Below, piece by piece: positions 8,327 to 23,711 of a DNA stretch of 37,343 nt; the first letter of the stretch is position 1, and the number at the start of each line of letters is the position of its first letter. Made by a program: the position numbers and the translations under genes. The DNA comes from a virus. Location: IMG/VR virus record IMGVR_UViG_3300004094_000049; one strand, written 5' to 3'. The notes below the pieces were generated by a model. The model did no database searches and was not told the origin of the DNA. It saw only the letters and a list, made by a program, of their open reading frames with translations.

Positions 8327-8917
8327 TTAAATTGTTACTATCGTGACCAGAGATAAGATAGTTCCTAAAACCAAGTAGGTAATCATTTTCTTATCTGTAT
8401 ACAAGACTCTTCTTTTCAGTCTGTAGATTTCAGAGTTAGAAGGAATTGAAATCACTGCTTCCTCTGGATTATCGGGGTTCACCCGTACAGCAATTACTTC
8501 AGTTTTTGATGCATTTATTTTTTGCAAAATTGAGTATGCCTTCTCGAAACCTGGCTCAACCGTAATGTTTCGATTTTGAAACACCTCTCCTTCGAACTCA
8601 TACTCGTACATCACATTTACATTTTCATAAAGGGCAGAGTTTTCCGCGCCTTTCAGCCTCAATGCATCTAGCTTATCAGCTTCTACTGCTGTAGGTTCAC
8701 GATCACCTATTTCATGAAGTAATTTATAATATTCTTCAAACTCAAGCCCGACACTCATACTAAGCACTCTGGCTTTTGTTTTTTTCCATTTCCTTTGGTT
8801 ATCGCACTGTTTTTTAACACTTTTAAAAAGCGATAAAGTGTCTTTTAGATCTGAATAGGCACTAAAAAGGCACAACCCTGCGCCTAAAGATCCGAAAACA
8901 GTAAGTAGTCCACTCAT
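8327..8917 (-). CDS. DUF3592-like membrane protein
   Basis: TM - W..T.ARV - V.YEYEFEGEVF - VRVNPDNPEEAVI - TM. Start ATG 8917 overlaps the upstream stop (ATGA). Confidence 0.7.
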   Translation of the reverse strand: MSGLLTVFGSLGAGLCLFSAYSDLKDTLSLFKSVKKQCDNQRKWKKTKARVLSMSVGLEFEEYYKLLHEIGDREPTAVEADKLDALRLKGAENSALYENVNVMYEYEFEGEVFQNRNITVEPGFEKAYSILQKINASKTEVIAVRVNPDNPEEAVISIPSNSEIYRLKRRVLYTDKKMITYLVLGTILSLVTIVTI

Positions 8918-9312
8918 AATGTACTCCACATTGAATAAATCACAGCTAAACCACAAATGCTAAATTTAATCCATAGTGCTACCGCCACTTGAGCGCTTGG
9001 CTCAACCAAGACGGACTTCAGTGGATCCTTCTTGTTAAAAAACACACAGATATCTTCATTTGAACTATTTAGTTGACGTAGAAAGGCCCCTTTCGAAGAG
9101 GCTCCAATCTTTGAATATATTAAAATGTTGTTACACCCATAATCTGCTGTTCCCACCCTAAATTTAACAAGGATTTGCTCTGTTTCTTTGTTGAAAAAGA
9201 CAAGCTCTCCCTTTTCTTTTTCAGTATATTCAGACCTTTTAATGTAAAACAAACAAAGGTTCATCATGTAAAAAACCATGCCCATAACAGCAAAAAATAG
9301 TATGTATATCAT
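8914..9312 (-). CDS. Small membrane protein, DUF3592-like
   Basis: TM - VKFRVG..Y - VFFNKKDPLKSVL - TM; translationally coupled on both sides. Confidence 0.55.
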   Translation of the reverse strand: MIYILFFAVMGMVFYMMNLCLFYIKRSEYTEKEKGELVFFNKETEQILVKFRVGTADYGCNNILIYSKIGASSKGAFLRQLNSSNEDICVFFNKKDPLKSVLVEPSAQVAVALWIKFSICGLAVIYSMWSTL

Positions 9313-10433
9313 CGTGTTAAGCCAAAGCCCCCAAATTTATTGTGAAATTTATTCAATCGTTCTTGCCTTTCTTCTTTGGAAAGCTGAGTAACATTCACCA
9401 TTTGAACTTGTGGCCTGTCTGCTTCATTTAGATTTAGCTGCTGGCGGTACTTGCTAGACAGATTTCCACCATTTAACTCCATGAAATTATTGAATTTCGT
9501 CATGCGTCCACGACTGTAATGATCGCGTGCTTTAGCAGCAGTTCTCATGAAATCCATTCCAAAGGTATCTAAAAGTAAGTTACTGTCGTAGCGACTCATG
9601 CCATTTCGAGCAAAATAACCTAAAATCGTACCTTTCGTGAAGAAGGAGTTATTAAAGTTCTTCTTTAAACGGCCAATACCAATGTTTCGATCTCTTTCAG
9701 TGCCTTCATAATCGTTATTGAGGTACAACAAAGAACTAGCTATCGCTTTTACAGCGCCCTTGTTCGCAATGTAGTCGGCTTCATGGTTGCCTGTGACCTT
9801 GTTAGCCAAAGAATAGTCATCTAAAGTGCTGCAAGAATCGAAGTCGATAGCGTCGGCCTCAATGCTATCAAGCGTATGTGATCGAACCCATTCACAGTCA
9901 ACAGACAGGATGTTCTCGTTATTTTTTATGGTATCGAGAATACCAAGTGCAAACCTTGATTCATTGTTCTTAACCCAGTCTTCACTAGGAATATTTTTCG
10001 CACCGACTTTTTCAATTCGGGCGCTAAAGCTAGCAATATCGTTCTCTAACTTCTCACGATTCTTAAGTTTAGCTATCGTATTGAACGAATCTGTAAAAAT
10101 GGTGACATTACTTTTGTATTGTACATTTTCTAAAGCCTGCTTCATTGCCGTGAATTCAGCTTCCATCGCACTAGCATTCTGCATTCCACCATAACGGTAA
10201 GATTTATGAACGTGTCCATTAAGGTTTTTGTGCTTTTTAACCCAGCCCCAACCAGCGAACGAACGTCCATCTATGCCATTTTCTACGCCCTTTACAGAGC
10301 CATCAGTGAAGATCTCAACGGCCTGGCCCAGTTTATCTAGTCCACCCTCCACAATATTGTGTCGTTGATTTGTTGTCTCTTTACTCGCATCTTTGTAAGC
10401 GTCGCGCACCTCATTAATTGATACTTTTTTCAT
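9309..10433 (-). CDS. RNase HI-family protein with insertions and C-terminal extension
   Basis: IFTDGS, AMEAEFTAM..AL, TIFTDS, EWVRSH, GNHEADYIAN: all catalytic D-E-D-H-D positions present. Confidence 0.85.
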   Translation of the reverse strand: MKKVSINEVRDAYKDASKETTNQRHNIVEGGLDKLGQAVEIFTDGSVKGVENGIDGRSFAGWGWVKKHKNLNGHVHKSYRYGGMQNASAMEAEFTAMKQALENVQYKSNVTIFTDSFNTIAKLKNREKLENDIASFSARIEKVGAKNIPSEDWVKNNESRFALGILDTIKNNENILSVDCEWVRSHTLDSIEADAIDFDSCSTLDDYSLANKVTGNHEADYIANKGAVKAIASSLLYLNNDYEGTERDRNIGIGRLKKNFNNSFFTKGTILGYFARNGMSRYDSNLLLDTFGMDFMRTAAKARDHYSRGRMTKFNNFMELNGGNLSSKYRQQLNLNEADRPQVQMVNVTQLSKEERQERLNKFHNKFGGFGLTR

Positions 10434-10511
10434 TATTATTATCCTATAGGCGTTCCTAGCCTTTATTATATCATGTATAATAATTTATCAACAAATGAAA
10501 GCGAATTAAAC

Positions 10512-10769
10512 ATGGAAAACATTGAATTTGAAATCTCCTTAACTCGAAACAGCGACGTAATCTTAGGTATTCCTGAGCATCTTTTCGATACTTCAAGGCT
10601 AAAGCTAAAACTAACGGAAGACGGTTTCACCTTATCTGATGAGAACACGGCATTACCACTAACAGCTTTGCCCGACGAACTATACCAAAAAATAGTAAAT
10701 TCGAGAAGGATTTATGTTTCCTTTACTGAAAACCAACAGTTGGAGTTGTTACAAGTAGACTCTAACTAA
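10512..10769 (+). CDS. Small acidic hypothetical protein
   Basis: ORF divergent from the RNase H gene; likely start MENIEF at 10512, downstream of a TATAAT. Confidence 0.55.
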   Translation: MENIEFEISLTRNSDVILGIPEHLFDTSRLKLKLTEDGFTLSDENTALPLTALPDELYQKIVNSRRIYVSFTENQQLELLQVDSN

Positions 10770-11098
10770 TTCACAAATTCGATAAGCTTCGGTGGTCTAT
10801 TGAGGAATCGAGTAAAATGTCGCTTTCCTCCATCAATGGCAACTTTTGATAAAAGAGCTTTACGCCAAGCACTTCTCCATCCGTACTTACAGATAGATAC
10901 TAGTTTGGTCTCATTGTCAGTGGTTGTTACTTTGAAATAAGGCATCAACTTGATTGAGCCGTGTGTACAACGCTTTACCAAAACAACCTTTACGCAATCA
11001 ACATAGGTGACTTGGTCACTGCTTTTAAAGGATAGATGACTGATGCGTTGTTCTGAAGGTACTACTGAATTTCCATGATTCATATGAGTAGTTTCCAT
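10766..11098 (-). CDS. Hypothetical basic protein, possible AP2-like DNA-binding motif
   Basis: Likely start METTHM at 11098; VSICKYGWRSAWRKAL resembles the AP2 'fs..kyG...A...A' motif. Confidence 0.45.
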   Translation of the reverse strand: METTHMNHGNSVVPSEQRISHLSFKSSDQVTYVDCVKVVLVKRCTHGSIKLMPYFKVTTTDNETKLVSICKYGWRSAWRKALLSKVAIDGGKRHFTRFLNRPPKLIEFVN

Positions 11099-11146
11099 TA
11101 TTATTTCTCTTATAGGATAATCAATGGAATTATATATAGGATAATA

Positions 11147-11674
11147 ATGACAAGTCAACAGTGCAATTGTATTAACATCGATTCGATTGAATCATCACTA
11201 AATAAACTCGGCATTAAGAGGCCAAAAGGCTTTCACGTTGGGAAGAAGGTTGGCGACAATCTTTGGTTTCATAAGATGTCCATGAGCACCATGCTTACTG
11301 ATGAGGAAATACGAAGAGTTCACTCTATCTGTGAAACTCAAAAGTTCGAATTTGATGTTGTTAGGTTAAGCCTGAAATCTCGGCAGCTATGCCTGATTGA
11401 GTGCCCAGAGTTCTTTGACATCGAAGAGCCAGCAATAGAGAGGTCTCTAGTCATTAATGAACAAGACTTCAAGATCACTAACTCATCCAAGAACAAAATG
11501 ATTTACCATCATAAATGGCAAATGCTTCCACGAAACTATGACACAGAATACCTAATAAAATCTATGCAACGAAGTCTCAAGTGGAAATCAATATTAGGTG
11601 TAGACAGAGCCATTAGCTCTAGAATTGGTAGACAACAATTCTGGGAGCAGTGGTTAAAGGATAACAACGTTTAA
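11147..11674 (+). CDS. Protein resembling the non-catalytic repeat domain of the DNA phosphorothioation-associated putative methyltransferase
   Basis: GKKVGDNLWFH, FDVVRL, LCLIECPEFFDIEEPAIERS, NKMIYHHKW; start 11147 after AGGA. Confidence 0.55.
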   Translation: MTSQQCNCINIDSIESSLNKLGIKRPKGFHVGKKVGDNLWFHKMSMSTMLTDEEIRRVHSICETQKFEFDVVRLSLKSRQLCLIECPEFFDIEEPAIERSLVINEQDFKITNSSKNKMIYHHKWQMLPRNYDTEYLIKSMQRSLKWKSILGVDRAISSRIGRQQFWEQWLKDNNV

Positions 11675-11704
11675 CCTTCATTTAATAATAATAAGAATAA
11701 TAAT

Positions 11705-12220
11705 ATGGAACAGACATTTACCTCGAAGAACACTTCCATCAACAGCAATAAGCTCCCTGTCCTTTTTTCTAAAGCTTCTAAGCTAAATGTATGGACAAAA
11801 GATGCAATCAACTTAGACATTGGTGGAGGAAAGTTTGATAACGTTTCACTCTTTTTGTCTTCCGAGCATAAGGTTACGAATCTAATATATGATCCATTCA
11901 ATCGAAGCGAAGAGCACAATGCCGCCATTATAACAATGGCGAAAGGGGCCAAGGTTGATACCGTCTCCCTTTCTAATGTATTGAATGTTATTGATAGTGA
12001 AAGTGCTCAAGAAGACCTGATCAGGCTCGCAGATGAATGCCTTAAAGAAAACGGTACTCTTATCGTAGCCGTATACGAAGGCGATAGAACAGGTGTTGGT
12101 AGGCAAACAGGTCGAGACCAATGGCAAGAAAATAGAACCATCGACAGTTATTTGTCCATGATAAAAAAATACTTCCCACGAATAACGCTTAAAAACAAAG
12201 TTATTTATGCCTCTAAATAG
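11705..12220 (+). CDS. Class I SAM-dependent methyltransferase
   Basis: NLDIGGGKFD (motif I), IYDPFN, DTVSLSNVLNVID, LKENGTLIVAVY. Confidence 0.85.
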   Translation: MEQTFTSKNTSINSNKLPVLFSKASKLNVWTKDAINLDIGGGKFDNVSLFLSSEHKVTNLIYDPFNRSEEHNAAIITMAKGAKVDTVSLSNVLNVIDSESAQEDLIRLADECLKENGTLIVAVYEGDRTGVGRQTGRDQWQENRTIDSYLSMIKKYFPRITLKNKVIYASK

Positions 12221-12238
12221 CCTTGCCTTTTCAATAAC

Positions 12239-12282
12239 TTGAACTATATTGACCTAAGGTTGGATAATTATTAGGTCAATAT
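12239..12282 (+). promoter_or_regulatory. Putative promoter with a 12-bp perfect inverted repeat overlapping RBS/start of the tus-like gene
   Basis: TTGAAC..GATAAT; ATATTGACCTAA (12246-12257) / TTAGGTCAATAT (12271-12282). Confidence 0.55.
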
Positions 12283-13126
12283 GGAACATTCACTGAAGTA
12301 CACAAGAGTCGTAGAAGCACTTCATGAACTCGAAAGTGCTATTGATGAATTGATTCGCTTAAATGGCGACATGAACATTCACTTACCAGATGTCGATGGG
12401 AAGTCCTCTCCTGTCAACTTGCTTAAAGAGTATTTGACCGACCTTTGGTATCGCGATAGTGATGATGGTCGAAAGACCGTTACTTATACGGGTGTGGTTG
12501 AATGCAATCCCCTCGCACTCCACGCCGCCCAGTTGGTTAATGCTGCAAAAATAAAACTGCAAAAGGAAGTACAATCAATAGGATACCTGTCTCCTGCTGT
12601 AAAGAGAAAGTTCAATAGAGACATGTTTGACTCCAGTTCCTGGAGACCTCACCTTGGCTCCATTGGTCTTGGAAGGATTAATTTAAATCATTGCTACAGA
12701 AAGATCCCAATCCACACAGAACCCGTCAAAGTCATCTCTTATAGCTGGTATGTTAATGGTAAGAGTCTTAAGGTAATTAATCCTAAAAAAGCAGAAGCAT
12801 TATTGGTTAAGCTTTCCAAAAGTGGAATGACGGAAGCTTTAGAGACCCAGATCCAGTTACTGGGTCAGCATCCACACCACATCCCTCTTGTACAGGTGCA
12901 AGAACTCGCACCTCATCTTAAAGCAAATTTATTCAAAGAGGTCAGCGGCCTTCCAAAGACGATGAAGCCAGCATTGCCTATTTTTATTCCTCACTGCGAA
13001 CCTGTCATAAAGTATGAAAAGTCATTAGGTAATGATGAACCTACGAGAAAACAACGTAGTGATAAAGAAATTGAAGATATGCCATTTCTACCTTCAATAA
13101 GGGTTTTTAGAAAAATTGCTAACTAG
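12281..13126 (+). CDS. DNA replication terminus site-binding (Tus/Ter) family protein, non-enteric type
   Basis: DLWYRDSDDGRKT..YTGVV, VNAAK, GRINLNHCYRKIP, SWYVNGKSLK, LVQVQELAPHLKANL, RKQRSD..IE..PFLPSIRV; resembles the Pseudomonas/Halomonas-type proteins annotated this way (from memory). Confidence 0.7.
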   Translation: MEHSLKYTRVVEALHELESAIDELIRLNGDMNIHLPDVDGKSSPVNLLKEYLTDLWYRDSDDGRKTVTYTGVVECNPLALHAAQLVNAAKIKLQKEVQSIGYLSPAVKRKFNRDMFDSSSWRPHLGSIGLGRINLNHCYRKIPIHTEPVKVISYSWYVNGKSLKVINPKKAEALLVKLSKSGMTEALETQIQLLGQHPHHIPLVQVQELAPHLKANLFKEVSGLPKTMKPALPIFIPHCEPVIKYEKSLGNDEPTRKQRSDKEIEDMPFLPSIRVFRKIAN

Positions 13127-13140
13127 GGGCTTCGGCCCCT
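13125..13140 (+). terminator. GC hairpin with UUCG loop after the tus-like gene
   Basis: AGGGGC-TTCG-GCCCCT. Confidence 0.7.
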
Positions 13141-13178
13141 CATTTAATTATTTAGTTTAAATTAATTCTATCACTCTG

Positions 13179-13206
13179 TTGACACCTCTATTTTTTTGAA
13201 TATAAT
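13179..13206 (+). promoter_or_regulatory. Sigma70 promoter of the four-gene AAA operon
   Basis: TTGACA-16 bp-TATAAT; RBS GAGGT at 13272. Confidence 0.75.
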
Positions 13207-13284
13207 AACCTCCAGATTGAGAAAAGGAGATCACGCCTGATTCTCAACATTTAATAATAAGTAATAATAATGAGGTTATAAATC

Positions 13285-14352
13285 ATGTTCGATCTAGAAT
13301 CTGGCATTAAATCGGCTAAAGCTCAAGTGGCTGAAGCATCACAAAAAACACAACAAGTAAGTCTGCAAGATCGCCTATCAGGCTCTGAAGAAGAACTGCT
13401 AACAAGTTACGATCTTGAGTCGGCACAACTTGAAGATGTTCGTAATAACAACGATCATCTAAACCAAAACATGGTTACTATGATCCTTGAGCTAGACGAA
13501 ATCACTCAGTCTATGGGTAGTGATTTCAACACTATGCGTGAAAGCAGCTCAATGGAAAAGTTCGTTGGTATTTTCTCTAAAAACAAATCAAGTCAAATGC
13601 GTGCTGACCGTATCGCAGCAAGCAACATCAACACCAAACTAAACGATCTTATCGTTCAGTCTCGCCAAATTAGTGAAATTCTTAAAGAGCAAGAGCAAGT
13701 TCTTGGTGAACAGCTTTCTAAGGGTAACACTAACCTAGAGCAAACAATCGAAAATCGTAAGTCTACGATTGCTGAGCTAATGAGCGTTGAAGAAGAGATG
13801 TCAACTCTTGACCCTCAAATCATGCAACTTGAGCGTAGCATCGCTGAAGAAGCAGACAAAGGCGTTCGTACTGAGCTTGAAGAGCAACTGACGCAACTTA
13901 ACCAGCGCTTTAATACGCTTCAAGGTGATCAGCAGAAGCTTACTGTACGCTCTCAAACTCTTGAGCGCTACATCGACATGAACAAGACAAATATCGATAG
14001 CTTGAGCAATCAGTTGGTTTCACAAACCACCCTAATTGACAAGCTTGAAACTGATACTGCGCAACGTGTTGTACTTTACGAGCAATACGAACTGTCTCTA
14101 AAAACGGCTGATCAGCAAACAACTGCTCACCGCATCAATGAAATCGGTACAGCAGTTGACTCTAAACAGCAAGAAGGCATGGCATTTATTGGTGCTGCTG
14201 CTCAAAACCGTACCATTGACATGATGGAGAAGCATGAAACTGACATGGCTATGTCTCGTGAGCTAATGGATAAGAAAGCTCGCTCTGACGAACGCTTCAT
14301 GCGCCGTTTTGCTGACGTTATCGACAAGCATAACGCAGGCTCTTACGAATAA
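13285..14352 (+). CDS. Long all-helical coiled-coil protein (TelA-like architecture), first gene of the operon
   Basis: Heptad-rich throughout, nearly Pro-free, amphipathic EKFVGIFSK segment; codon usage looks like that of a highly expressed gene (CGT/GCT/AAC-rich). Confidence 0.75.
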   Translation: MFDLESGIKSAKAQVAEASQKTQQVSLQDRLSGSEEELLTSYDLESAQLEDVRNNNDHLNQNMVTMILELDEITQSMGSDFNTMRESSSMEKFVGIFSKNKSSQMRADRIAASNINTKLNDLIVQSRQISEILKEQEQVLGEQLSKGNTNLEQTIENRKSTIAELMSVEEEMSTLDPQIMQLERSIAEEADKGVRTELEEQLTQLNQRFNTLQGDQQKLTVRSQTLERYIDMNKTNIDSLSNQLVSQTTLIDKLETDTAQRVVLYEQYELSLKTADQQTTAHRINEIGTAVDSKQQEGMAFIGAAAQNRTIDMMEKHETDMAMSRELMDKKARSDERFMRRFADVIDKHNAGSYE

Positions 14353-14365
14353 CCTCGTGATCTTG

Positions 14366-14430
14366 GCCCACTTTCGGGTGGGCTGAATCTTTTTACAAGC
14401 GTCTCATTCTATTGAGGCGTTTATAAAAGG
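14366..14430 (+). terminator. Two intercistronic hairpins after the coiled-coil gene
   Basis: GCCCAC-TTTCGG-GTGGGC, then CTTTTTACAAGCGTCTCA-TTCTAT-TGAGGCGTTTATAAAAGG. Confidence 0.55.
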
Positions 14431-14447
14431 AATAATAAGGACTGGCA

Positions 14448-15557
14448 ATGAGTAACAATTCTGAAGAATACGTAAAACTCACGGTAAATGGCGAGATTAA
14501 AAACTACTTTTCTCGTATGAAAAACGTGCTTAGTTGTCTTGAAAACGTCTTCGATATCGATTCAGCCGATGTGGAGTCATCTGTAGATAACGCAATTATC
14601 CATAACTACCTGCAACAACTGACTAACTCGTTTAAAGCATTAGAGCTTAAAAACTGGTTTGTTGGTATTAGTGACCGCGAAGGCTTAGAGCTTGTTATTG
14701 ATAGTGTTGATAGCGGCTTTCCGCTACGTAAGGACTTCACATTCCTTACCGCTGAGCAAGAAGAATCAGAGCAATTTAGTGGAAAACTACCAAGTACAGA
14801 AGTATTAAAATCGAAGATCGAAAAGCATTTGCTACGTCAAAAAACGTTGCCTCGTTCTTTACAGCAAGATTTGGCGACAAAGCTGTATTTTGATCTTCTT
14901 GAGAATCAGGAACTTTTCCTAAACACAAACGATGTTCAGTACCAATGCATTGGTGAAAATGAGTCTAATGGCAATATTCGATACCTTGCTCATTGGGCCA
15001 ACTACGATATGAAGAAAAATATTCCAAATATCTACATCATGGTTTTTGAATTCTCAGGTGACGAAGTATTTGAAGAAACTTCTGAATATCACTCGATTGG
15101 TAATTACCTAGCCAACAATAGCTATTCGCAAACAATGCTATTAGAGCTTGCTCAAGAAATTGATAAGAACAAATTCATTCACCCTAAGTTGCTCAAACGA
15201 ATTCATGTAGGCCCTATATATAACTCAGGTCTTACTAAGCACAATGACAACATTCAGGACATCCTGGGGCGAATCAAAAATGAAGATGACAACTGGGTTT
15301 TTGCTTGGAGTACTGAAATCTTGCGTTCTAAGGGTCAAGAAAGTGTTAGCACGGGTCTCTTATCAAAACGACAACGTGAAATCTTCATGATCGACAGATA
15401 CTCGGTCGATACCTTTGAGGCTGGTGCCTCAGAAATCATTCAGAGCATGATAATCCCTTATGGTGCCTATCAAGCTCTTGCTGAAAGTAGTGAAAACCCA
15501 CTACACAACATTCAAAAATACGTAATTGACCCAAACGGTAGCGTAATTTACCTGTAA
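14448..15557 (+). CDS. Hypothetical protein, second gene of the AAA operon
   Basis: 369 aa; AAGGA RBS; DSGFP, HWANYD..NIPNIY, HPKLLKRIHVGP motifs. Confidence 0.8.
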   Translation: MSNNSEEYVKLTVNGEIKNYFSRMKNVLSCLENVFDIDSADVESSVDNAIIHNYLQQLTNSFKALELKNWFVGISDREGLELVIDSVDSGFPLRKDFTFLTAEQEESEQFSGKLPSTEVLKSKIEKHLLRQKTLPRSLQQDLATKLYFDLLENQELFLNTNDVQYQCIGENESNGNIRYLAHWANYDMKKNIPNIYIMVFEFSGDEVFEETSEYHSIGNYLANNSYSQTMLLELAQEIDKNKFIHPKLLKRIHVGPIYNSGLTKHNDNIQDILGRIKNEDDNWVFAWSTEILRSKGQESVSTGLLSKRQREIFMIDRYSVDTFEAGASEIIQSMIIPYGAYQALAESSENPLHNIQKYVIDPNGSVIYL

Positions 15558-15582
15558 ATCACATAAGAAGGTTATAAGAATA

Positions 15583-17484
15583 ATGGATAATAAAAATCTT
15601 TTGGAAATCCCAGAAAAGGATGTCTCGGTTCAACTTAACGATGCTCATGCACTGCTAAGTTCATTTGTTCATTCTGAAGCAGTTTCGTTGAATGCTTCAC
15701 CAGAAGAACGCCGTTTCCGACCTCGCTCTGTCGTTGCAGGCTCTGGCGCACAAACAACGACAAAGACCATTAAGGTTATTGACGTAATTAACTCAATCAA
15801 CCCTGACAACCCACTACCGAGTGACATTCAACACCATGTACTAACGACTCTTCAGCGTGGCGTAGCCGTTAGTAACACGATCATGAATCAATTCTCGCGA
15901 ATTTCAGGTCTTAGCCGACTAATCGAAGAAAATCGTGGTGGATACCTTGAAGAAGGTAAGCGATCTATGCTGGCTGAAATGACAAATACATCCGCTGCAA
16001 TTGCAACGCATGTGCTTGCATCTTATGTTGTCTTTAAGCTTGGTAATGACATCTCTCAAGGTGGTGAAGAGGCTTCCATTAAGCCACTAACACTGAATAA
16101 GCCTGGTGATGCAATTAAGTCAGTGCTAACGCAGCTTACTGAAAATGTGGAACAGAAAGTTCACGACGACGAAAAACTTGTAAATATCGTTGTTTCATTC
16201 TTTGAACAAGTGCTAGCAGACATAGCGGTACAAAAAGACAGCTTGAAGCACGGTGAAACCTTCGAAAACTATACGTTTGATGTGGGTTCAGAAGAGTTTA
16301 CTATTACTGGTTTTGAAAAAGTAACTGCGGCTAAGAAAGCTGATCTGGTTATGACTTTCAAAAAGCCAACTGAAGTTATTGGTAACGCGCATGCAAAGCA
16401 GCAGGCAGTGAAACTTGCAAAAATGATCATGTGTTATGACTTTAAAACACAGATGAATCCATTTGCTGAAGCTGGTGGCTTCATGTATACATTTATGGGT
16501 GACGGCAACCCTGGTACGGGTAAGACAACACTGATTCAGATGATTGCAGGTCTCGTGCATGATTACTGTCAAGTTGCACAATATCCATTTTACTACGAGA
16601 ACTTCGGCCCAGACCAAATCTCAGAGTATCAAGGCAAGACAGCACAGAATGTGAAACAATTCGTTCAAAATGTGCAAAATCCAAATGTAATTGGTTTTGG
16701 TACAATTGATGATATCGACCAAATTGCAGGTAAACGTGGTGATAAGCAATCAAGTGCTGGTCAACAAGAAGTAACAGCGGTACTAATGGAAACATTTGCG
16801 GGTGCTAACACGGTAATTCGCGGCAATGCTACTTTTGGTATGTTCTCTAACTTCCCTGAAAATGTAGACGATGCTCTTCGTCAACGTGCAAGCACACGTA
16901 TGTTGATTGATGGCCCACAGACATTTGAAGACTTTGTTGATATTACAGCACTTCTTGTTGGCAAAAACACAACAATTCCACTTGGCAACCATAACCTATT
17001 TGCCACGCAGAACATTCAAGAAGCGGCGGAAAAATCATTTGAAGAGCATAATCTTCCGCAAGAACCAGAGCTTCGCTCTGTGTACGATAAGGTGGTTGCT
17101 CAATACGGCCCAATCAACTCATTTGAAATTATTGGCCGTTACCAAAAAGCCATCAACGAAGCAGATGATCGCTTTACAGGTCGTGCAATTATGAACATTG
17201 CAAACGCAGCAAAAGTTCGTGCTAATGATGTAGATCTGCCTGATGAATGGTTTGAAGACCCTTCTTTGTTCTTGCATAAATCATACGAAGAGAAAAAATC
17301 TATGCTAGAGCAATTTGTGGTGCCGATTACGCCTGAAATGTATCTTCAAGAGCTTAACCGCTATGCAGACTCTGAATTCCGTTACAAAAACAAGAGTCGC
17401 AATGTTGAAATTCAGAACCGTAAAGATCAAATCCTTATGGAAAATGAAGCTCGTAAACTTGCACAAGAAGAATTGCAAAATTAA
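15583..17484 (+). CDS. AAA+ ATPase (classical clade) with long N-terminal domain
   Basis: Walker A GDGNPGTGKTT; pore loop ISEYQG; Walker B FGTIDDID; SRH MFSNFPENVDDALRQR; FTGRAIMNI. Confidence 0.9.
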   Translation: MDNKNLLEIPEKDVSVQLNDAHALLSSFVHSEAVSLNASPEERRFRPRSVVAGSGAQTTTKTIKVIDVINSINPDNPLPSDIQHHVLTTLQRGVAVSNTIMNQFSRISGLSRLIEENRGGYLEEGKRSMLAEMTNTSAAIATHVLASYVVFKLGNDISQGGEEASIKPLTLNKPGDAIKSVLTQLTENVEQKVHDDEKLVNIVVSFFEQVLADIAVQKDSLKHGETFENYTFDVGSEEFTITGFEKVTAAKKADLVMTFKKPTEVIGNAHAKQQAVKLAKMIMCYDFKTQMNPFAEAGGFMYTFMGDGNPGTGKTTLIQMIAGLVHDYCQVAQYPFYYENFGPDQISEYQGKTAQNVKQFVQNVQNPNVIGFGTIDDIDQIAGKRGDKQSSAGQQEVTAVLMETFAGANTVIRGNATFGMFSNFPENVDDALRQRASTRMLIDGPQTFEDFVDITALLVGKNTTIPLGNHNLFATQNIQEAAEKSFEEHNLPQEPELRSVYDKVVAQYGPINSFEIIGRYQKAINEADDRFTGRAIMNIANAAKVRANDVDLPDEWFEDPSLFLHKSYEEKKSMLEQFVVPITPEMYLQELNRYADSEFRYKNKSRNVEIQNRKDQILMENEARKLAQEELQN

Positions 17485-17500
17485 TTTTTTCTCGTATAAT

Positions 17501-17525
17501 AAAGACCTCTTTGGAGGTCTTTTTT
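17501..17525 (+). terminator. Intrinsic terminator/attenuator after the ATPase gene
   Basis: AAAGACCTC-TTTG-GAGGTCTTTTTT. Confidence 0.75.
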
Positions 17526-17547
17526 AATTATAAAAATAAGGATAATC

Positions 17548-18804
17548 ATGATCACCCATCAGAAACTTAAAGATGTTCTATATTCAGAACTACTAGTCAT
17601 TAATACTGAACACATGATCGAACGCTATAATCGAGCACTACTGGGCTTGACTGGAAAAGCAACTAAGTTAACGAGTTTTCATATTGATGGCTCTGGATTT
17701 TCTCCTGAAATTGCAGAAGAATTTGACGATCAGAACTACCTGAACCCCAATGGCGTAAATCGTCAATTTATCCTTCTTGATATCAAGCAAGAATCTCTAC
17801 CATTATTTGAAAGTTTTTTTACTTCAACGGCCCATATTCTTAAGTCGTTTATTAGCGATAATCGCTCTGCATTACTGACACTTACTGCGTTAGATTGTGT
17901 CTATGGTGAACTTGAAAATAATATCTATAAAATTGAAAAAATTGAAGACCTCTTGAGTGTCAAAGAAGTAGAGATTAAGATTGAAACACCTAAAAGGCTG
18001 ATTGAGCAGGCAAAATTACTAAATGGTAAATTGGAAGAACTGCGAAATGCTCCTTCGACTACCTGGCTCGAAGACCAGCCACTTGAAGAAATTATTGATA
18101 TCGCAAAAGAAACAGGCAATATCACACTAAACAAAATCATCCCTGAGCATATGAATTACTCAAAGGACTGGTTCTACACCGATCACTTTGGTGGACTCTA
18201 TGTTTTCACAAGTTCTAAAAAGAATGTCATTATCAATATGGGTGATGAGTTAAATGGATGGTCTCATCCTGATTACAAAATCATCGATGGTAAAGATCAT
18301 AAATCAGTGTACAAATTCCTGCTGAGTAGCAAGTTTATAGAAAAGCTTAAAGGGCAAGAACTACGTGACCAACAAGAAAGCATTAAAAACAAAAAGTTTC
18401 AGGTCATGCTTGATCACCTTTCAACTTCAGAAGGGCTTCATCATCAAGAAATTGACTGGTTTACTATCAAGCAATTCATTTTTGACAACTACAATACACT
18501 ACCTCCAGAGTTTCATGAGCTTTACAAGCTTTCTCAGCAGGTTGAGCGTGAAGAGGCAATACCAACAGACAGCGAAATGCTTTTTTATGTTGCCAAAGTA
18601 AATCGTAAAATTTTGTCCGAACACAGGTCTAACATAGTCAACCATATGCTAGCCAATTTTACGCAACTTAGTTACATGAGGACGTTTACTTATAACCGTT
18701 CGCTATTTATCAAGCAGTTCAATACATGGTCATCAGCCAAGCAAAATTACATTGCTGAATACCTGTCATCTCACTTGTCGTACCTGAACAATTTGAAGCA
18801 CTGA
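17548..18804 (+). CDS. DUF6638-like protein
   Basis: IERYNRAL..LTGKATKLTSFHIDGSGFSPEIAEE..YLNPNGVNRQFILL; FYTDHFGGLYVF; resembles, from memory, the family found beside this AAA ATPase in Rhodobacteraceae. Confidence 0.7.
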   Translation: MITHQKLKDVLYSELLVINTEHMIERYNRALLGLTGKATKLTSFHIDGSGFSPEIAEEFDDQNYLNPNGVNRQFILLDIKQESLPLFESFFTSTAHILKSFISDNRSALLTLTALDCVYGELENNIYKIEKIEDLLSVKEVEIKIETPKRLIEQAKLLNGKLEELRNAPSTTWLEDQPLEEIIDIAKETGNITLNKIIPEHMNYSKDWFYTDHFGGLYVFTSSKKNVIINMGDELNGWSHPDYKIIDGKDHKSVYKFLLSSKFIEKLKGQELRDQQESIKNKKFQVMLDHLSTSEGLHHQEIDWFTIKQFIFDNYNTLPPEFHELYKLSQQVEREEAIPTDSEMLFYVAKVNRKILSEHRSNIVNHMLANFTQLSYMRTFTYNRSLFIKQFNTWSSAKQNYIAEYLSSHLSYLNNLKH

Positions 18805-18846
18805 CCTATCATTTAAAATTAGATATAAAAAACAGTATCTTATACG

Positions 18847-18872
18847 ACGCCGCATATTTTTTATTGCGGCGT
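18847..18872. terminator. Hairpin ending the operon
   Basis: ACGCCGCA-TATTTTTTAT-TGCGGCGT. Confidence 0.55.
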
Positions 18873-19029
18873 TAAAACTTGTCTTGGCATTTATTATTCA
18901 CTATAATGTATACACAAAATATACTTGTTTAGGATGATTCTGGAAACGCAACCCAATCAGCTAAACAAAATGTTGTGAATCGGATTTTACAACAATTCAT
19001 ACATTATAGGCCGACACTGATTAGTTTTA
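18873..19029 (+). promoter_or_regulatory. mfd promoter embedded in a long multibranch inverted-repeat structure
   Basis: TTGTCT(18879)-17-TATAAT(18902); CTATAATGTAT/ATACATTATAG closing arms; internal hairpins. Confidence 0.6.
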
Positions 19030-22000
19030 TGCTAGATACCGTTTTCTCTCCAAATCTACATGACTTCACTTCACAGCTTTACGGTGGTGTAAGTGGCTCT
19101 TCTGTTGCCTCGATAATTACTAAAGAATTTCAAGCAAACAATAGAACATCTGTTCTAGTCTGTGCTTCTGATCAGCAAGCTCAAGAAACATACAATCAGA
19201 TACGTTTCTTTAACAAAACGAATCTTGATGAAAGTAATATTCTCTATCTTCCTGGTCTTGAAACACTTCCATATGACTTGGAATCTCCACATGCTGAACT
19301 GATCGCTGATCGAGCAAAAGTCTTCTATGAGGTCTTTTCTTCAACATCGCAGAGCAATCCTGAAAGTAAGCTGATTGTTACTTCAATCAACTCTCTTGTG
19401 CAAAAAATTTGCTGTGGAAAGCACTGGGTAGAAAGTTCATGGATTATCGAGCGAAACGAAGCTCTTTCTATTCCTGAGATTATTGAACATCTTTCGACTC
19501 TTGGTTACAAGCAAGATACGCTTGAGTCAACTTCGATGGCAACGTTCTTTAATACCAACGATAACATTGATATTTTTTCTACGAGTGAAGAGGCTCCCAT
19601 TCGAATTAAAGTTCGTGATGGTGTCGTTCACAGCATGAAAGCAATAGATATTAATACTCAGTTGACCGTTGGTGAAGAGATAGAAACCCTTAAAGTACTA
19701 CCTGCACGCGAGATCCCTGTCTCTGCACAAGGCGTTCGTACTTTCAAGATCAACTATCGACGCACTTTCAATCGCGCTATCGGTGATAAATTCTACGAAA
19801 GTGTTAGCCACTTTGACTTCCCAAGCGGCATTGAGAGTCTTCTACCATTATTCTCTGATACAAACGTATCACTTCTTGAGGCAGTCCTTCCGCTCGATCC
19901 TTGTGTCTATATTCTTGATGGTGCAAAAGAATCGCTAGAAAAGTATCTTGTACAAATAAATAAACGATACAACGAGTTAGGTAAAGATAAAACTCGTCCT
20001 ATTCTTCCACCAAACAAAGTTTGGCTGGATGGTAGACGTCTCGCTGAAGTACTGAATGATGCCAATGTGTTTAAAGTTCAATCAAGTGTATCAGAGCACG
20101 ATGAAAAAACTTTCCACACTCAACTCACGAATTTTACGAGGAAGAGTAATCTCAATGAGATCATTGAAATGCTATCCGAGTATACAGTTCAAGCCTCAAA
20201 GACCATTGTATTTATTCACTCTGATGTACGACTTCAGCAAGTAGAAACACTTCTTAGTCTATTAGATAAAGACGTGGAGATCTGTAGTAGTTGGGACGAA
20301 GCTTTAGCTTCTGATTCTGATGCATGTATTATTGAAGCTGGCATTAACGTAGGTTTCTATGATTTAGATAATGACATGCTTGTTGTTACTGAAAAGGAAA
20401 TCTTCGGACAGCCGATTCAGGCGAAAGATGAATCAGGCTTAGAACGCTCTGCCCCAATGAACATGAATGACTTAAAGTACCTTAAGACAGGTGATTTGGT
20501 CGTTCATATTAATAATGGTATTGGTCGCTACGACGGTTTAAAGGTTCTCTCTGTTAATGGTGCAGACAAAGAATACTTTACTATCAACTATGCAGACTCT
20601 GCTAAAGTCTACGTCGATCTGAACGATTTGCAGTTGGTCAGTAGGTATTCTGGCGCGGATCCAGAGAAAATTAAACTTGATCGAAAAGATGCCAAGAAAT
20701 GGGGTGCGAAAGTTGAGCAAGCCGTTAAGCATATCCAAGGAACTGCCTTGCAATTACTTGAGGCACAAGCTGAACGCGCTGCGAAAAGAGGTATTGTATT
20801 TGATAAGCCAATGAGTTCTTACAACCGCTTCTGTCAGGAGTTCCCGTATCAACCTACATCTGATCAAATAAAAGTTTCCACAGAAATTGCACAAGACTTA
20901 ATTAGCCCAGTTCCAATGGACAGGCTTGTTGCTGGTGACGTTGGCTTTGGCAAGACTGAAATTGCAATGCGTACTAGCTTTATTGCCGCAGCTTCTGGTT
21001 ATCAAACCGTTGTTTTAGCTCCATCTACTATTCTTGTGCATCAGCACTTTGAGAGCTTTAAAAGTCGATTTGCCAACACTCCGTACAAAATTGTTGAACT
21101 CTCTAGTAGTAGCAATAACAAGCACGCCCTGGCTCAAATTAAGTCTGGTGATGCTGACATTATCATTGGCACTCATAAAGCGATTCAGAAGTCCGTAAAG
21201 TACCACAATCTCGGCCTTTTAATTGTCGATGAAGAGCATCGTTTTGGTGTTAAAGCTAAAGAGCAGTTACGTTTTATCTCTAAAGACATCAATATACTGT
21301 CAATGACGGCGACACCTATACCTCGCTCGCTATCAATGGCAATGAATGGCATTAGAGACATGTCTGTGCTTGCAATACCACCAGCTAAAAGACTGTCTAT
21401 CAGAACACAAGTACGCAATAAAACTAATGATGTTCTGGTTGAAGCTGTTGAGCGTGAGCTTTTAAGAGATGGGCAGGTTTTCTATGTTCACAATAACACA
21501 TCGACCATTGATGAATGTGCAGATACACTGAGAGCCATTTTCCCTTCTGCTCGAATCTGTGTGGGTCACGGAAAAATGTCCACTCAGGAACTTGAGACTG
21601 TTATGTCTGCGTTCTATAAGCACGAGTATGATATTTTGGTTGCAACGACGATCATTGAAACGGGTATCGATGTACCTAACGCAAACACAATAATCATTGA
21701 AGAAGCGGAAAACTTTGGTGTGGCATCACTACATCAGCTTCGTGGCCGTGTAGGACGTTCACACCACCAAGGTTATGCCTATTTACTTCGTGGTAAAGCC
21801 GCGAACTCAGAAACAAGTATAAAGCGCCTCAATGCAATGGAAAATGCCACCCAACTTGGTGACGGCTTCCTTCTTGCAAATCATGACTTGGCTATCCGTG
21901 GTGCTGGTGAAATACTTGGGGAAGAGCAAAGTGGACACATGGCTCAAATTGGTTATGAGCTGTATGATAAAATCATGCAACACGCCTTGGAGCTAATCCG

Positions 22001-22499
22001 CGACAACGGCATGATTGAGCTAACTAATAAACAGGTAGATTCTCTGTACAAAGGACAAGAGAGTACTCAAATTGATGTGGGCCTTGCTGGTCTCATATCG
22101 CCTCAGTATGTCTCTAACGAACAGCTCAGGCTTTCTCTGTACCGAAAAATTTCTCTTGTTGAAACCAAAGACGATGTCGAACAGATTAAGGCTGAATTAG
22201 TTGATCGCTTTGGCCCACTGCCTAAAAACACAGAGCGTCTGCTAGAGATTTCCAAACTTAAAACAGTTATCGTTAAGCTAGGCATCAATGAGATTAAGCT
22301 TCATCCAAATGGTGGCGTTATGAAGGTCTCTCACGCCAAAGAGAGCAGTCATAAGCTTGTTGATATGGTAGAGCGCAATGCGCCTGAGATGCAGCTCTCT
22401 ACACCCTTTGCAGCGACAATCTACAACAAGTTTGAGAACCCAGATGATCGTGTGAATCACGTAATTAAGCTCATAAAACAATACGCTAGCGCAAAGTAA
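19029..22499 (+). CDS. mfd: Transcription-repair coupling factor Mfd (diverged)
   Basis: LETLPYD, LPARE, CarD-like RID (GDLVVHINNGIGRYDGL), PMDRLVAGDVGFGKTEIAMR, DEEHRFGV, TATPIPRSL, QLRGRVGRS, DLAIRGAGEILGEEQSG, RLSLYRKI, ELVDRFGPLP. ATG 19029 preferred over GTG 18975. Confidence 0.95.
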   Translation: MLDTVFSPNLHDFTSQLYGGVSGSSVASIITKEFQANNRTSVLVCASDQQAQETYNQIRFFNKTNLDESNILYLPGLETLPYDLESPHAELIADRAKVFYEVFSSTSQSNPESKLIVTSINSLVQKICCGKHWVESSWIIERNEALSIPEIIEHLSTLGYKQDTLESTSMATFFNTNDNIDIFSTSEEAPIRIKVRDGVVHSMKAIDINTQLTVGEEIETLKVLPAREIPVSAQGVRTFKINYRRTFNRAIGDKFYESVSHFDFPSGIESLLPLFSDTNVSLLEAVLPLDPCVYILDGAKESLEKYLVQINKRYNELGKDKTRPILPPNKVWLDGRRLAEVLNDANVFKVQSSVSEHDEKTFHTQLTNFTRKSNLNEIIEMLSEYTVQASKTIVFIHSDVRLQQVETLLSLLDKDVEICSSWDEALASDSDACIIEAGINVGFYDLDNDMLVVTEKEIFGQPIQAKDESGLERSAPMNMNDLKYLKTGDLVVHINNGIGRYDGLKVLSVNGADKEYFTINYADSAKVYVDLNDLQLVSRYSGADPEKIKLDRKDAKKWGAKVEQAVKHIQGTALQLLEAQAERAAKRGIVFDKPMSSYNRFCQEFPYQPTSDQIKVSTEIAQDLISPVPMDRLVAGDVGFGKTEIAMRTSFIAAASGYQTVVLAPSTILVHQHFESFKSRFANTPYKIVELSSSSNNKHALAQIKSGDADIIIGTHKAIQKSVKYHNLGLLIVDEEHRFGVKAKEQLRFISKDINILSMTATPIPRSLSMAMNGIRDMSVLAIPPAKRLSIRTQVRNKTNDVLVEAVERELLRDGQVFYVHNNTSTIDECADTLRAIFPSARICVGHGKMSTQELETVMSAFYKHEYDILVATTIIETGIDVPNANTIIIEEAENFGVASLHQLRGRVGRSHHQGYAYLLRGKAANSETSIKRLNAMENATQLGDGFLLANHDLAIRGAGEILGEEQSGHMAQIGYELYDKIMQHALELIRDNGMIELTNKQVDSLYKGQESTQIDVGLAGLISPQYVSNEQLRLSLYRKISLVETKDDVEQIKAELVDRFGPLPKNTERLLEISKLKTVIVKLGINEIKLHPNGGVMKVSHAKESSHKLVDMVERNAPEMQLSTPFAATIYNKFENPDDRVNHVIKLIKQYASAK

Positions 22500-22503
22500 G
22501 AAG

Positions 22504-22527
22504 AAGCCCCGCATAATGCGGGGCTTT
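22504..22527. terminator. Bidirectional intrinsic terminator
   Basis: AAGCCCCGCA-TAA-TGCGGGGCTT. Confidence 0.85.
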
Positions 22528-22531
22528 CTAC

Positions 22532-23092
22532 TTAGATAGCACCAGACAATGAAAGTAAAGAATGAATTAACCTGATAAGAAAGTAAAAGCTAATCCCTAT
22601 CACTGTGTAGGCAGGCACAAAGATGAACCAAGGGTTTTGCTCCAATCTAGTACTGATAACTGAATCACTGATATTTTCAGGGTTAAAGTATACCTTGATC
22701 ATCTTCCCTTCTAGCTCATCAATCTGCTCAATACCTCTGAACTCAGGGAGCATTTTCAACAAACCCTTAGTCGCATGCTTCTGAGTTAAATCAAACTGAT
22801 CATTGAAGTAATCTCTATCTTCATAAGTGTACCTATAAGTAATGAGGTACTTGCCACGTTCACGTCGCACATCCCGAATCCGACCCATTAATGTAGGCCA
22901 TTTTCTAGCACGTCTAATCTTTATATGTTTCGTCAAATAGATTATAGTGATGACGAAAATTACGGCGCTCATAAGAAACAACAACGTAAGTGGCGCAAGA
23001 TAAAAATCACCAGAAAGTGATTCAGAACCAGACACTAAATAGTAGGTCAAACAAGCAATAATTCCTGTACTTAGCAGTAAACTTAGTAGCAT
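22532..23092 (-). CDS. DUF3592-like membrane protein
   Basis: TM segments; ARKWPTLMGRI, ITYRYTYEDRDY, IKVYFNPENISDSVI. Confidence 0.75.
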   Translation of the reverse strand: MLLSLLLSTGIIACLTYYLVSGSESLSGDFYLAPLTLLFLMSAVIFVITIIYLTKHIKIRRARKWPTLMGRIRDVRRERGKYLITYRYTYEDRDYFNDQFDLTQKHATKGLLKMLPEFRGIEQIDELEGKMIKVYFNPENISDSVISTRLEQNPWFIFVPAYTVIGISFYFLIRLIHSLLSLSGAI

Positions 23093-23173
23093 AAGACCCT
23101 CTCTTGTTGATTGTTATTAAGGCTTAAATTATTGTTTGCGCATTAATATAATATAAAAATAAGGTATCGTCTA

Positions 23174-23710
23174 ATGGTTTTTTTAGTTATAATATCGCTT
23201 GTTTTCTTAACAACTTCACACACTCAAGCATCAGAGATTTACCCCACTATAGGTATCCCTTTAGAGATCGTTCAATACGCAAGTGTTTTTATGGTTTCAT
23301 TTTCACTAGGGGCATGGATGCTGCGTGAAAGATATCAGCACACCCAAACTGTAAAAAATAAACAAAATTTCAGTACCATTTCATGGCGAGACTTTGAGGA
23401 ATTGGCTGGAGAGTATTACCGTAAAAAAGGTTACTCTGTTCAAGTGGTCGGAGGCTCTGGTGGTGATGGTGGAATTGACTTAATTGCCAAGAAGCGATTC
23501 CGAAAAACCATCGTACAATGTAAACACTGGAAAAATAAAATTGGTGTTTCAATTGTACGTGAGATGTTTGGTGTCATGCATGCTGAGTCTGCTCATAGAG
23601 TTGTGATAATTTGCTCTGGTCAATTTACCAGCGAAGCTATCGCATTCGCTGAAGGAAAGCCGATTGAGCTTGTAGATGGCCCTACTTTCATAAAAAGGTT
23701 AAACAAATAA
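23174..23710 (+). CDS. Membrane-anchored Mrr-like restriction endonuclease domain protein
   Basis: Two N-terminal hydrophobic segments; WRDFEELAGEYY..GY.V..GGDGGIDL..IVQCKHW..VRE..G..FTSEA..FA..IELVDG. Confidence 0.85.
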   Translation: MVFLVIISLVFLTTSHTQASEIYPTIGIPLEIVQYASVFMVSFSLGAWMLRERYQHTQTVKNKQNFSTISWRDFEELAGEYYRKKGYSVQVVGGSGGDGGIDLIAKKRFRKTIVQCKHWKNKIGVSIVREMFGVMHAESAHRVVIICSGQFTSEAIAFAEGKPIELVDGPTFIKRLNK

Positions 23711-23711
23711 T

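Follow-up and report, generated by a model that had tools for sequence, protein, structure and literature searches.

A conserved four-gene operon combining an all-helical protein, a classical-clade AAA ATPase and a DUF6638 protein, and its candidate roles

The locus described here raises two questions: whether four consecutive genes, one of which encodes an AAA ATPase, make up a unit of their own, and what such a unit may do. The genes (gene 1 to gene 4 hereafter) lie within IMG/VR virus record IMGVR_UViG_3300004094_000049, the whole 37,343 nucleotides of which are referred to as the window. A first reading, made from the letters and without database searches (the sequence-only reading), had described a self-contained system of unknown function, in which an abundant helical protein would be remodelled by a dedicated unfoldase, and had envisaged a stress, membrane-repair or anti-phage module carried on a mobile replicon. 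Comparative analyses answer the first question. The four window genes are the stripped-down soluble core, or minimal form, of a conserved and undescribed operon. This is a real and old unit, accessory yet stably chromosomal, occasionally moved between lineages.

The four window proteins were searched by tblastn on 82 loci, 64 of which have enough flanking DNA for synteny to be assessed. In about 60 of the 64, all from other species, genes 1-2-3-4 lie together with order and strand preserved, at identities to the window proteins of approximately 43% for gene 1, 28% for gene 2, 46% for gene 3 and 32% for gene 4. The same order is found in 47 of 57 metagenome loci and in all of the 20 further Hyphomicrobiales loci analysed. 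Synteny thus supports the notion of a self-contained, conserved gene set. DUF6638, the family of gene 4, has at least 565 species-level matches in the genome collection. A link to Rhodobacteraceae, proposed initially, holds as well, since DUF6638 occurs, mostly as one match per genome, in 138 of the 301 genomes (~46%) sampled in the family of Rhodobacter aestuarii. It is found in 4 of 401 genomes in an even sample of Alphaproteobacteria, and in 1 of 37 genomes of the Thalassospira family. Members of the gene 1 family reside in 60 of 331 Hyphomicrobiales genomes (18%). A match of the gene set to a characterised pathway was looked for, and none was found.

A 925-kb plasmid of Vibrio vulnificus carries all four genes with mfd after them, as in the window, and its versions of the proteins are about as distant from the window proteins as those of alphaproteobacteria. 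The cluster is also present on 0.88-0.94 Mb plasmids of Vibrio parahaemolyticus. The plasmid-database records with gene 1 and those with gene 4 are the same 10, all of at least 0.88 Mb and typed as non-mobilizable, and several of these are really chromosomes. Carriage on a mobile replicon is thus not supported. In Rhodobacteraceae and rhizobia the operon is single-copy, and resides in stable chromosomal neighbourhoods beside housekeeping genes.

The patchy spread (1% of the class-wide sample, one of the 37 Thalassospira-family genomes, giant accessory replicons) could fit an anti-phage or other conflict system, with the helical protein in the part of sensor or effector and the AAA ATPase in that of a switch. 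An Mrr-type nuclease gene 4 kb downstream in the window, and weak matches of gene 3 in PADLOC-DB 2.0 to IetA (E 2e-7) and TRIP13 (E 9e-6), point in the same direction. These matches, however, are restricted to the AAA core and denote the generic fold only, and the same database gave nothing meaningful for the other proteins (marginal matches at E 7e-4 and 4e-3 for genes 1 and 2, none for gene 4). Neither 50,697 phage genomes nor the viral contig collection yielded a copy of the operon, and none sits on a mobilizable plasmid. Single-copy residence in stable neighbourhoods, and an unusually high sequence conservation, equally speak against a conflict system, which we deem very improbable; the anti-phage role first envisaged is not upheld.

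The assignment of gene 3 to the classical AAA clade is supported. The protein matches PF00004 over residues 308-442 (E 1e-14, 55.5 bits against a cut-off of 21.2), and its best solved relatives are Cdc48, Afg2, Rix7, Vps4 and the ATPase domain of Yme1 (E 7e-10 to 1e-6). The Walker A motif GNPGTGKT (residues 308-315) aligns with GPPGTGKT of Cdc48 and is conserved in 30 orthologues. In pore loop 1, S-E-Y-Q-G (EYQG at 348-351) lies opposite S-M-W-Y-G of Cdc48 D2 and S-K-M-A-G of D1, SYQGK being conserved, and N423 aligns with the sensor-1 Asn of Cdc48. The aromatic pore loop expected of the clade is thus present. Arginines 433, 435 and 439 are conserved, and are offset by one residue from R359/R362 of p97 by manual count. 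The Walker B motif (residues 370-377) reads I-D-D-I-D where Cdc48 has I-D-E-I-D, the catalytic Glu being replaced by Asp. Because D-D is kept in 30 of the 30 aligned orthologues, it is a family trait and not a lesion, and as a sequence feature it suggests a slow or switch-like ATPase. No known family is matched by the first 300 or the last 180 residues, and the C-terminal region is highly conserved. A Pfam scan (E <= 0.01) returned AAA and RNA_helicase only, with no MIT or Vps4 C-terminal domain. Weak similarities to the SpoVK/CbbX, PAN and FtsH ATPase modules were found in NCBIfam.

The product of gene 1 is a likely abundant scaffold or substrate. Among 20 window genes tested, gene 1 has the strongest codon bias, NNC/(NNC+NNT) being 0.61 against 0.23-0.50 in the others, with CGY/Arg and GGY/Gly both at 1.00, and the same G+C content at third codon positions as the other window genes. 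These numbers back the early impression of a highly expressed gene. Within the cluster the bias is highest in gene 1, intermediate in genes 2 and 3, lowest in gene 4. The gene 1 family is small (417 representatives at 50% clustering of 1.84 billion proteins), its complete members measure ~340-390 aa, and no fusions were found. Mean column identity is 72%, very high for a helical protein. An AlphaFold2 (AF2) model built on a 24-sequence alignment is all-helical, with a mean predicted local distance difference test score (pLDDT) of 76. It features a bundle spanning residues ~1-268, which includes a long hairpin (115-188/192-265), and a last helix which runs on to residue 350 at lower confidence. 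The helical nature of the protein and the EKFVGIFSK patch, both spotted by the sequence-only reading, are confirmed: the patch falls inside a conserved block, E91 and G95 are invariant, F97 and S98 nearly invariant. A second segment, located at residues ~268-289 on the protruding, lower-confidence C-terminal helix, contains nine of the invariant positions of the protein.

A kinship of gene 1 with the PspA, TelA or ESCRT-III families, at which the sequence-only reading had hinted, is not supported. Gene 1 has no match in Pfam, NCBIfam or PDB sequences, a PDB profile search included, and none of 24 homologues matched PspA_IM30 (PF04012), TelA (PF05816) or Snf7 (PF03357) at E <= 1. PspA and TelA genes from operon-carrying genomes and from other alphaproteobacteria served for direct comparison. 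Homology with PspA was rejected, hhalign giving a probability of 2.4% in a test of low sensitivity because only 3 sequences, all from operon-carrying genomes, stood on the PspA side, and so was homology with TelA (probability 0.2% against 13 TelA sequences). In the five operon-carrying genomes checked, a canonical PspA is encoded elsewhere in four and TelA elsewhere in two; therefore gene 1 is not their replacement. Foldseek retrieved nothing at E < 1e-3 for the gene 1 model. An exhaustive structural aligner retrieved the STAT2 coiled coil (Z 15.5), syntaxin, SPX and MukF (Z 12.7-13.2), and AhlC (Z 11.5; ~11 for the AhlC/AhlB pore-toxin family). The hairpins of CHMP4B, Shrub and Snf7 aligned with Z 10.1-11.4 over 77-113 residues (CHMP4B, Z 11.4 over 77), and helical matches stand out only at about 13. 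All matches were of the generic helical-bundle type, and none of them stood out. By sequence, gene 1 would thus be neither a detectable member of, nor a substitute for, the PspA, TelA and ESCRT-III families, and the likeness is limited to the presence of an abundant helical protein beside a classical AAA ATPase.

Gene 2 has no match in Pfam, NCBIfam or PDB sequences either, PDB profile search included. Its AF2 model is confident (pLDDT 90, predicted template modelling score 0.90), and a Foldseek search of the PDB gave nothing at E < 1e-3. A T-fold (uricase, DHNA, PTPS) was considered and set aside, the best exhaustive match, to uricase over residues 173-333, being too weak to use (Z 5.8). Gene 4, described from the outset as DUF6638-like, is indeed a full-length member of DUF6638 (PF20343; E 3e-77, 260.7 bits against a cut-off of 27, profile positions 2-395 of 439). 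It has 1161 relatives; a PDB profile search and a structural search gave no lead, and a literature search found no publication naming DUF6638. The ESM Atlas's own models of both proteins are of low confidence (pLDDT 0.32 for gene 2, 0.37 for gene 4). The idea that genes 2 and 4 are paralogues was rejected, as no relation was found between them.

The layout of the window cluster is reported in Table 1. The four co-oriented open reading frames (ORFs), the consensus promoter before gene 1 and the hairpins after genes 1 and 3, all noticed in the initial reading, are in place, and another hairpin follows gene 4. Intergenic gaps measure 95, 25 and 63 nt, and mfd comes next. The promoter-like site is the sole perfect TTGACA/TATAAT match within the scanned 8.8 kb (10400-19200), where promoter-like sites as a class are not commoner than in shuffles. 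Folding as good as that of the tandem hairpins 3' of gene 1 was obtained in 0 of 200 shuffles; a T run follows the first of the pair, and the arrangement is terminator- or attenuator-like. No Rfam match was found in 13000-19100. A weaker promoter-like site overlapping the end of gene 3 may, by its sequence, supply a separate gene 4 transcript.

Table 1. Features of the four-gene cluster and its surroundings in the window
Feature	Position	Strand	Remarks
Gene 1	13285-14352	+	355 aa, all-helical, no Pfam model
Gene 2	14448-15557	+	369 aa, N-terminal helical bundle and C-terminal alpha+beta domain
Gene 3	15583-17484	+	633 aa, classical-clade AAA ATPase
Gene 4	17548-18804	+	418 aa, DUF6638 family
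Sigma-70 promoter-like site, TTGACA-16-TATAAT	13179-13206	+	12/12 consensus match, 5' of gene 1
Gene 1 hydrophobic patch, E-K-F-V-G-I-F-S-K	13555-13581	+	residues 91-99; conserved
Gene 1 segment, S-L-K-T-A-D-Q-Q-x-x-A-H-R-I-N-E-I-G	14086-14151	+	residues ~268-289; candidate docking site for the AAA module
Tandem hairpins 3' of gene 1	14363-14386 and 14389-14430	+	-32.3 kcal/mol, z -5.6
Gene 3 AAA motifs	16504-16899	+	alignment to Cdc48 D1/D2; conserved in 30 orthologues
Promoter-like site, TTGCAA-16-TATAAT	17473-17500		10/12; overlaps gene 3 end, just 5' of the following hairpin
Hairpin with T run, gene 3-4 gap	17501-17522	+	9-bp stem, z -2.9 to -3.3
Cluster-closing hairpin after gene 4	18846-18873	+	9-bp G+C-rich stem, z -4.7; precedes mfd promoter region
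Terminal hairpin of the gene upstream of the cluster	13125-13140		
Cluster flanks	9309-13126 and 18975-25055		additional copies of DNA-metabolism genes: RNase H family, mfd, Mrr-type nuclease, RarA/MgsA
DUF3592 membrane-protein gene	8327-8956	-	
DUF3592 membrane-protein gene	22532-23092	-	beyond mfd; conserved in place on the V. vulnificus plasmid
Two adjacent short ORFs	11075-12220		weak matches to DNA phosphorothioation-associated methyltransferase (TIGR04096, E 2e-5) and to a methyltransferase domain

A graded stoichiometry, with much more of the coiled-coil protein than of the other products, had been proposed from the hairpins. In the window the hairpins agree with the gradient of codon bias. 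A hairpin downstream of gene 1 is also seen on the V. vulnificus plasmid, whose three gaps all fold at z < -3.5, and a few alphaproteobacteria have one as well. In most alphaproteobacteria the operon is compact, with gaps of -7 to 30 nt and no hairpins, so graded expression is a local feature, and the hairpin pattern is not conserved outside Vibrio-type copies.

Promoter elements differ among lineages as well. Both the window and the V. vulnificus plasmid have a TTGACA of the sigma-70 type 5' of gene 1. The strict alphaproteobacterial RpoH pattern CTTG-N16-18-CYTATNT was detected in 0 of 59 loci, and the Escherichia coli sigma-32 consensus, with one mismatch allowed per half, in 4 of 59 (0.14 in shuffles). 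In turn, C[CT][CT]AT[AC]T is located at -36 to -45 from the gene 1 start codon in 16 of 40 representative alphaproteobacterial loci, against 4.7% of random windows, and TGTAAA is enriched upstream of gene 1 (13 of 40 loci, 0.47 expected). Of the sigma-32 features only the -10-like element is clearly enriched, and a sigma-32-like -10 is therefore plausible for a large subset of loci, ~40% of the representative alphaproteobacterial ones, mostly from Rhodobacteraceae. In many Rhodobacteraceae copies (L006-L082 in our set, e.g. L030, L047, L051, L055) the arrangement (GA)TGTAAA-N5/6-(C/G)RTTAACA-N3-5-CCC(C/T)ATAT is found ~40-75 nt upstream of gene 1; its -10 portion resembles that of sigma-32, and ATGTAAA/TTAACAT can also be read as an imperfect inverted repeat, which could be an operator.

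Outside the window the four genes are often accompanied by genes for membrane proteins. In alphaproteobacteria DUF1523 follows gene 4 in ~56 of 64 loci; it is an inner-membrane protein, whose two transmembrane (TM) segments flank a conserved periplasmic domain and whose cytoplasmic tail is basic. Small plus-strand ORFs, each predicted to have 1-4 TM segments, occupy the gap between genes 1 and 2 in 25 of the 28 alphaproteobacterial loci which have such a gap, and small ORFs of the same type are found between genes 3 and 4 in 42 of 50. In rhizobia, as an example in Sinorhizobium, the final position belongs to DUF2333, a protein with a TM segment at its N terminus. The same was observed in 6 of 20 DUF2333 loci, in 47 of 57 metagenome loci, and in 12 of the 20 further Hyphomicrobiales loci, the other eight of which have DUF1523. 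Among the first 82 loci DUF2333 occurred in none besides Sinorhizobium, and canonical DUF2333 of the gamma type is not accompanied by gene 1; a role as a general partner was rejected. The cluster of Thalassospira xianhensis runs gene 1, gene 2, gene 3, DUF1523, dynamin-family GTPase, gene 4; the GTPase gene (L043:8476-9924; PF00350, E 1e-16) sits between DUF1523 and DUF6638. Given that only one of the 37 genomes of the family has the operon, this cluster looks like a single acquired copy. A relation of DUF1523 to the window DUF3592 located beyond mfd was tried by hhalign, which showed none, and was rejected. The membrane association supposed in the sequence-only reading is thus plausible from the DUF1523, DUF2333 and small TM proteins of alphaproteobacteria, and from one dynamin-like neighbour, but the window copy has no such partner.

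A reduced form of the system was met in rhizobia. In plasmid pSK03 of Rhizobium leguminosarum (L105:7791-10145) a diverged gene 1 homologue is directly followed by DUF2333, genes 2-4 are missing, and the surroundings of the pair, choXWV-tdk...fhs, are those of the full cluster of S. meliloti. The relation to gene 1 is supported by hhalign (probability 99.2%, 280 columns). Three further genomes (L144, L145 and L147) feature the same pair and have DUF6638 nowhere in the genome. All four pair-only homologues keep the patch, as E-x-x-x-G-x-x-S, and lack both the 22-residue block at ~268-289 and the C-terminal KH..Y tail. The block is present, sometimes in diverged form (S-I-R-T-x-E-Q-Q-N-V-A-H-R-I-D-D-V-G), in all of the 20+ full clusters examined. 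Several distant gene 1 relatives lack it as well, and a metagenome scan for their context returned ordinary full clusters. The persistence of gene 1 with DUF2333 alone and with no ATPase suggests an independent function. From these sequences we infer that gene 1 may act with a membrane protein by itself, and that segment and tail may be what the gene 2-3-4 module needs.

As to what the operon does, we incline, at somewhat less than even confidence, to the AAA-driven remodelling of an abundant, usually membrane-tethered helical scaffold, in which genes 2 and 4 would serve as adaptors and the task would be one of stress response or maintenance. Part of the remaining likelihood belongs to roles other than those discussed here. 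According to this view, the gene 1 helical-bundle protein would be abundant and would assemble as a scaffold, in most lineages at the inner membrane via dedicated membrane partners. The gene 3 protein, as a hexameric ATPase, would grip the exposed C-terminal helix and tail of the gene 1 protein, and remodel or disassemble it, while genes 2 and 4 would provide adaptors or regulators of gene 3. A role in the stress response or maintenance of either the envelope or the proteome may be invoked because of the sigma-32-like -10 element found in ~40% of the representative alphaproteobacterial loci. On the present giant accessory replicon of the Vibrio type the core would be driven by the consensus sigma-70 promoter, and it lacks a membrane partner. 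The genes, their conservation and order, the AAA motifs, the codon bias, the membrane partners of each lineage and the pair-only form are observed; which protein acts on which, the role at the membrane and the role in stress are inferred.

Several observations weigh against this scenario. Gene 1 has no detectable homology to any known polymer former or membrane binder. The D-D Walker B motif, judged by sequence, may make gene 3 a slow ATPase or a switch, and not a threading motor. Since neither the window copy nor that of the V. vulnificus plasmid has a membrane partner, the membrane link is not universal, and the dynamin neighbour is one case, in a family with the operon in 1 of 37 genomes. 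The sigma-32-like element occurs only in ~40% of the loci tested and is absent from the window. The correlation which points to a docking segment is thin, because one or two losses in evolution probably account for the pair-only form. Moreover, literature searches found no publication on the operon.

A different use of the same ATPase is conceivable. In a protein quality-control machine, gene 3 would unfold or extract damaged clients, possibly from the membrane as Msp1/ATAD1 or the FtsH ATPase module do, and genes 1, 2 and 4 would be adaptors or co-chaperones. The pore loop of the classical clade, the weak NCBIfam similarities of gene 3, the sigma-32-like element, mostly in Rhodobacteraceae, and the membrane-protein neighbours all suit such a machine. 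Yet the apparent abundance of gene 1, as judged from codon bias, goes far beyond the needs of an adaptor, protease or chaperone domains are found in none of the clusters, and gene 1 persists with DUF2333 in the lack of any ATPase. On balance quality control seems unlikely.

Scaffold remodelling, the interpretation favoured here, invites comparison with known systems. The closest functional analogy would be Vps4 with ESCRT-III, a system of eukaryotes with CdvB/CdvC in archaea, followed by PspA/Vipp1, and membership in either fails on the defining features tested. As in the former, a classical-clade AAA ATPase with an aromatic pore loop is paired with an abundant all-helical protein, the core hairpin and bundle of gene 1 are followed by a C-terminal helix with a conserved short segment, positioned like the MIM bound by Vps4, and a membrane context is likely for the operon. 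In contrast to Vps4, gene 3 has no MIT or Vps4 C-terminal domain by Pfam and has D-D in Walker B. Unlike ESCRT-III proteins, the 24 gene 1 homologues do not match Snf7, and the structural match to CHMP4B, Shrub and Snf7 covers the hairpin only, at the Z 10-11 of helical noise. Gene 2 and DUF6638 would be two extra obligatory proteins with no counterpart in that system. The hypothesis that the operon is an independently evolved bacterial counterpart of ESCRT-III/Vps4 is doubtful. According to it, a gene 1 polymer would coat or repair the inner membrane, anchored by DUF1523, DUF2333 or small TM proteins, and the AAA ATPase would recycle it via the C-terminal segment, helped by two adaptors of new fold.

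With PspA/Vipp1 (IM30) the operon shares an abundant helical protein, small inner-membrane partners, and stress-type regulation in some lineages, but the membrane partners are DUF1523 or DUF2333 rather than PspB/C or LiaF. PspA-type proteins adjoin classical AAA ATPases in some genomes, and the AAA associations reported in a survey of PspA partners are other than this operon (PMC11237479). TelA/KlaA resembles gene 1 in size (~350-400 aa), all-helical nature and link to envelope stress. Gene 1 differs in that it does not match PF05816, TelA is encoded elsewhere in two of the five operon genomes, and no Ter genes are nearby. Cdc48/p97 and Afg2, the best solved relatives of the ATPase domain, share with gene 3 aligned Walker A, pore loop 1 and sensor-1 motifs. 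In contrast to Cdc48/p97, gene 3 has a single AAA domain and not two, unrelated N- and C-terminal regions, and D-D in Walker B, and its arginines 433, 435 and 439 are not exactly at the R359/R362 positions of p97.

The neighbours of the cluster deserve a separate comment. The order RNase H...cluster...mfd...DUF3592...A24 peptidase is common to the window and the 925-kb V. vulnificus plasmid, which share only ~40% protein identity. No dnd genes were seen in the scanned parts of the window, where two short ORFs upstream of the cluster match methyltransferases weakly. Both copies are bordered by an RNase H-family gene on one side and by mfd on the other, RarA/MgsA and Mrr being close by; this setting, and a thymidine kinase gene upstream of the cluster in rhizobia, suggested a DNA-linked function, that is, maintenance or repair of the chromosome or replicon. 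Along the same line, the gene 1 model resembles, at noise level, the coiled coils of SMC, Rad50 and MukF, and one database labels a gene 1 homologue "chromosome segregation ATPase". Such a function is barely credible, as none of these neighbours is conserved across Rhodobacteraceae, none of the four proteins has a DNA-binding or nuclease domain, the conserved partners are membrane proteins, and the coiled-coil matches are generic. Judging from gene order, SMc02733 of S. meliloti, which bears a fragment bound by ChvI (PMC3687685), may be its gene 3.

The operon is common, being found in approximately half of the sampled Rhodobacteraceae and on giant Vibrio replicons, and a gene 1 homologue resides in about one fifth of Hyphomicrobiales, including Sinorhizobium meliloti. 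Rhodobacteraceae are major marine bacteria, and S. meliloti is a model symbiont. Three of the four core proteins fall outside any characterised family, and one of them has a confidently predicted fold for which solved structures offer no clear counterpart. This work adds to the picture the minimal Vibrio-type form, the D-D Walker B motif, the codon-bias gradient and the unmatched fold of gene 2, along with the alternation of DUF1523 and DUF2333, the pair-only variant with its deleted segment, and a quantified spread. The natural pair-only variant, together with the deleted segment, offers a direct and cheap experimental handle. If the operon does encode a membrane or protein remodelling machine, it would represent a new cell-biological system in genetically tractable bacteria.

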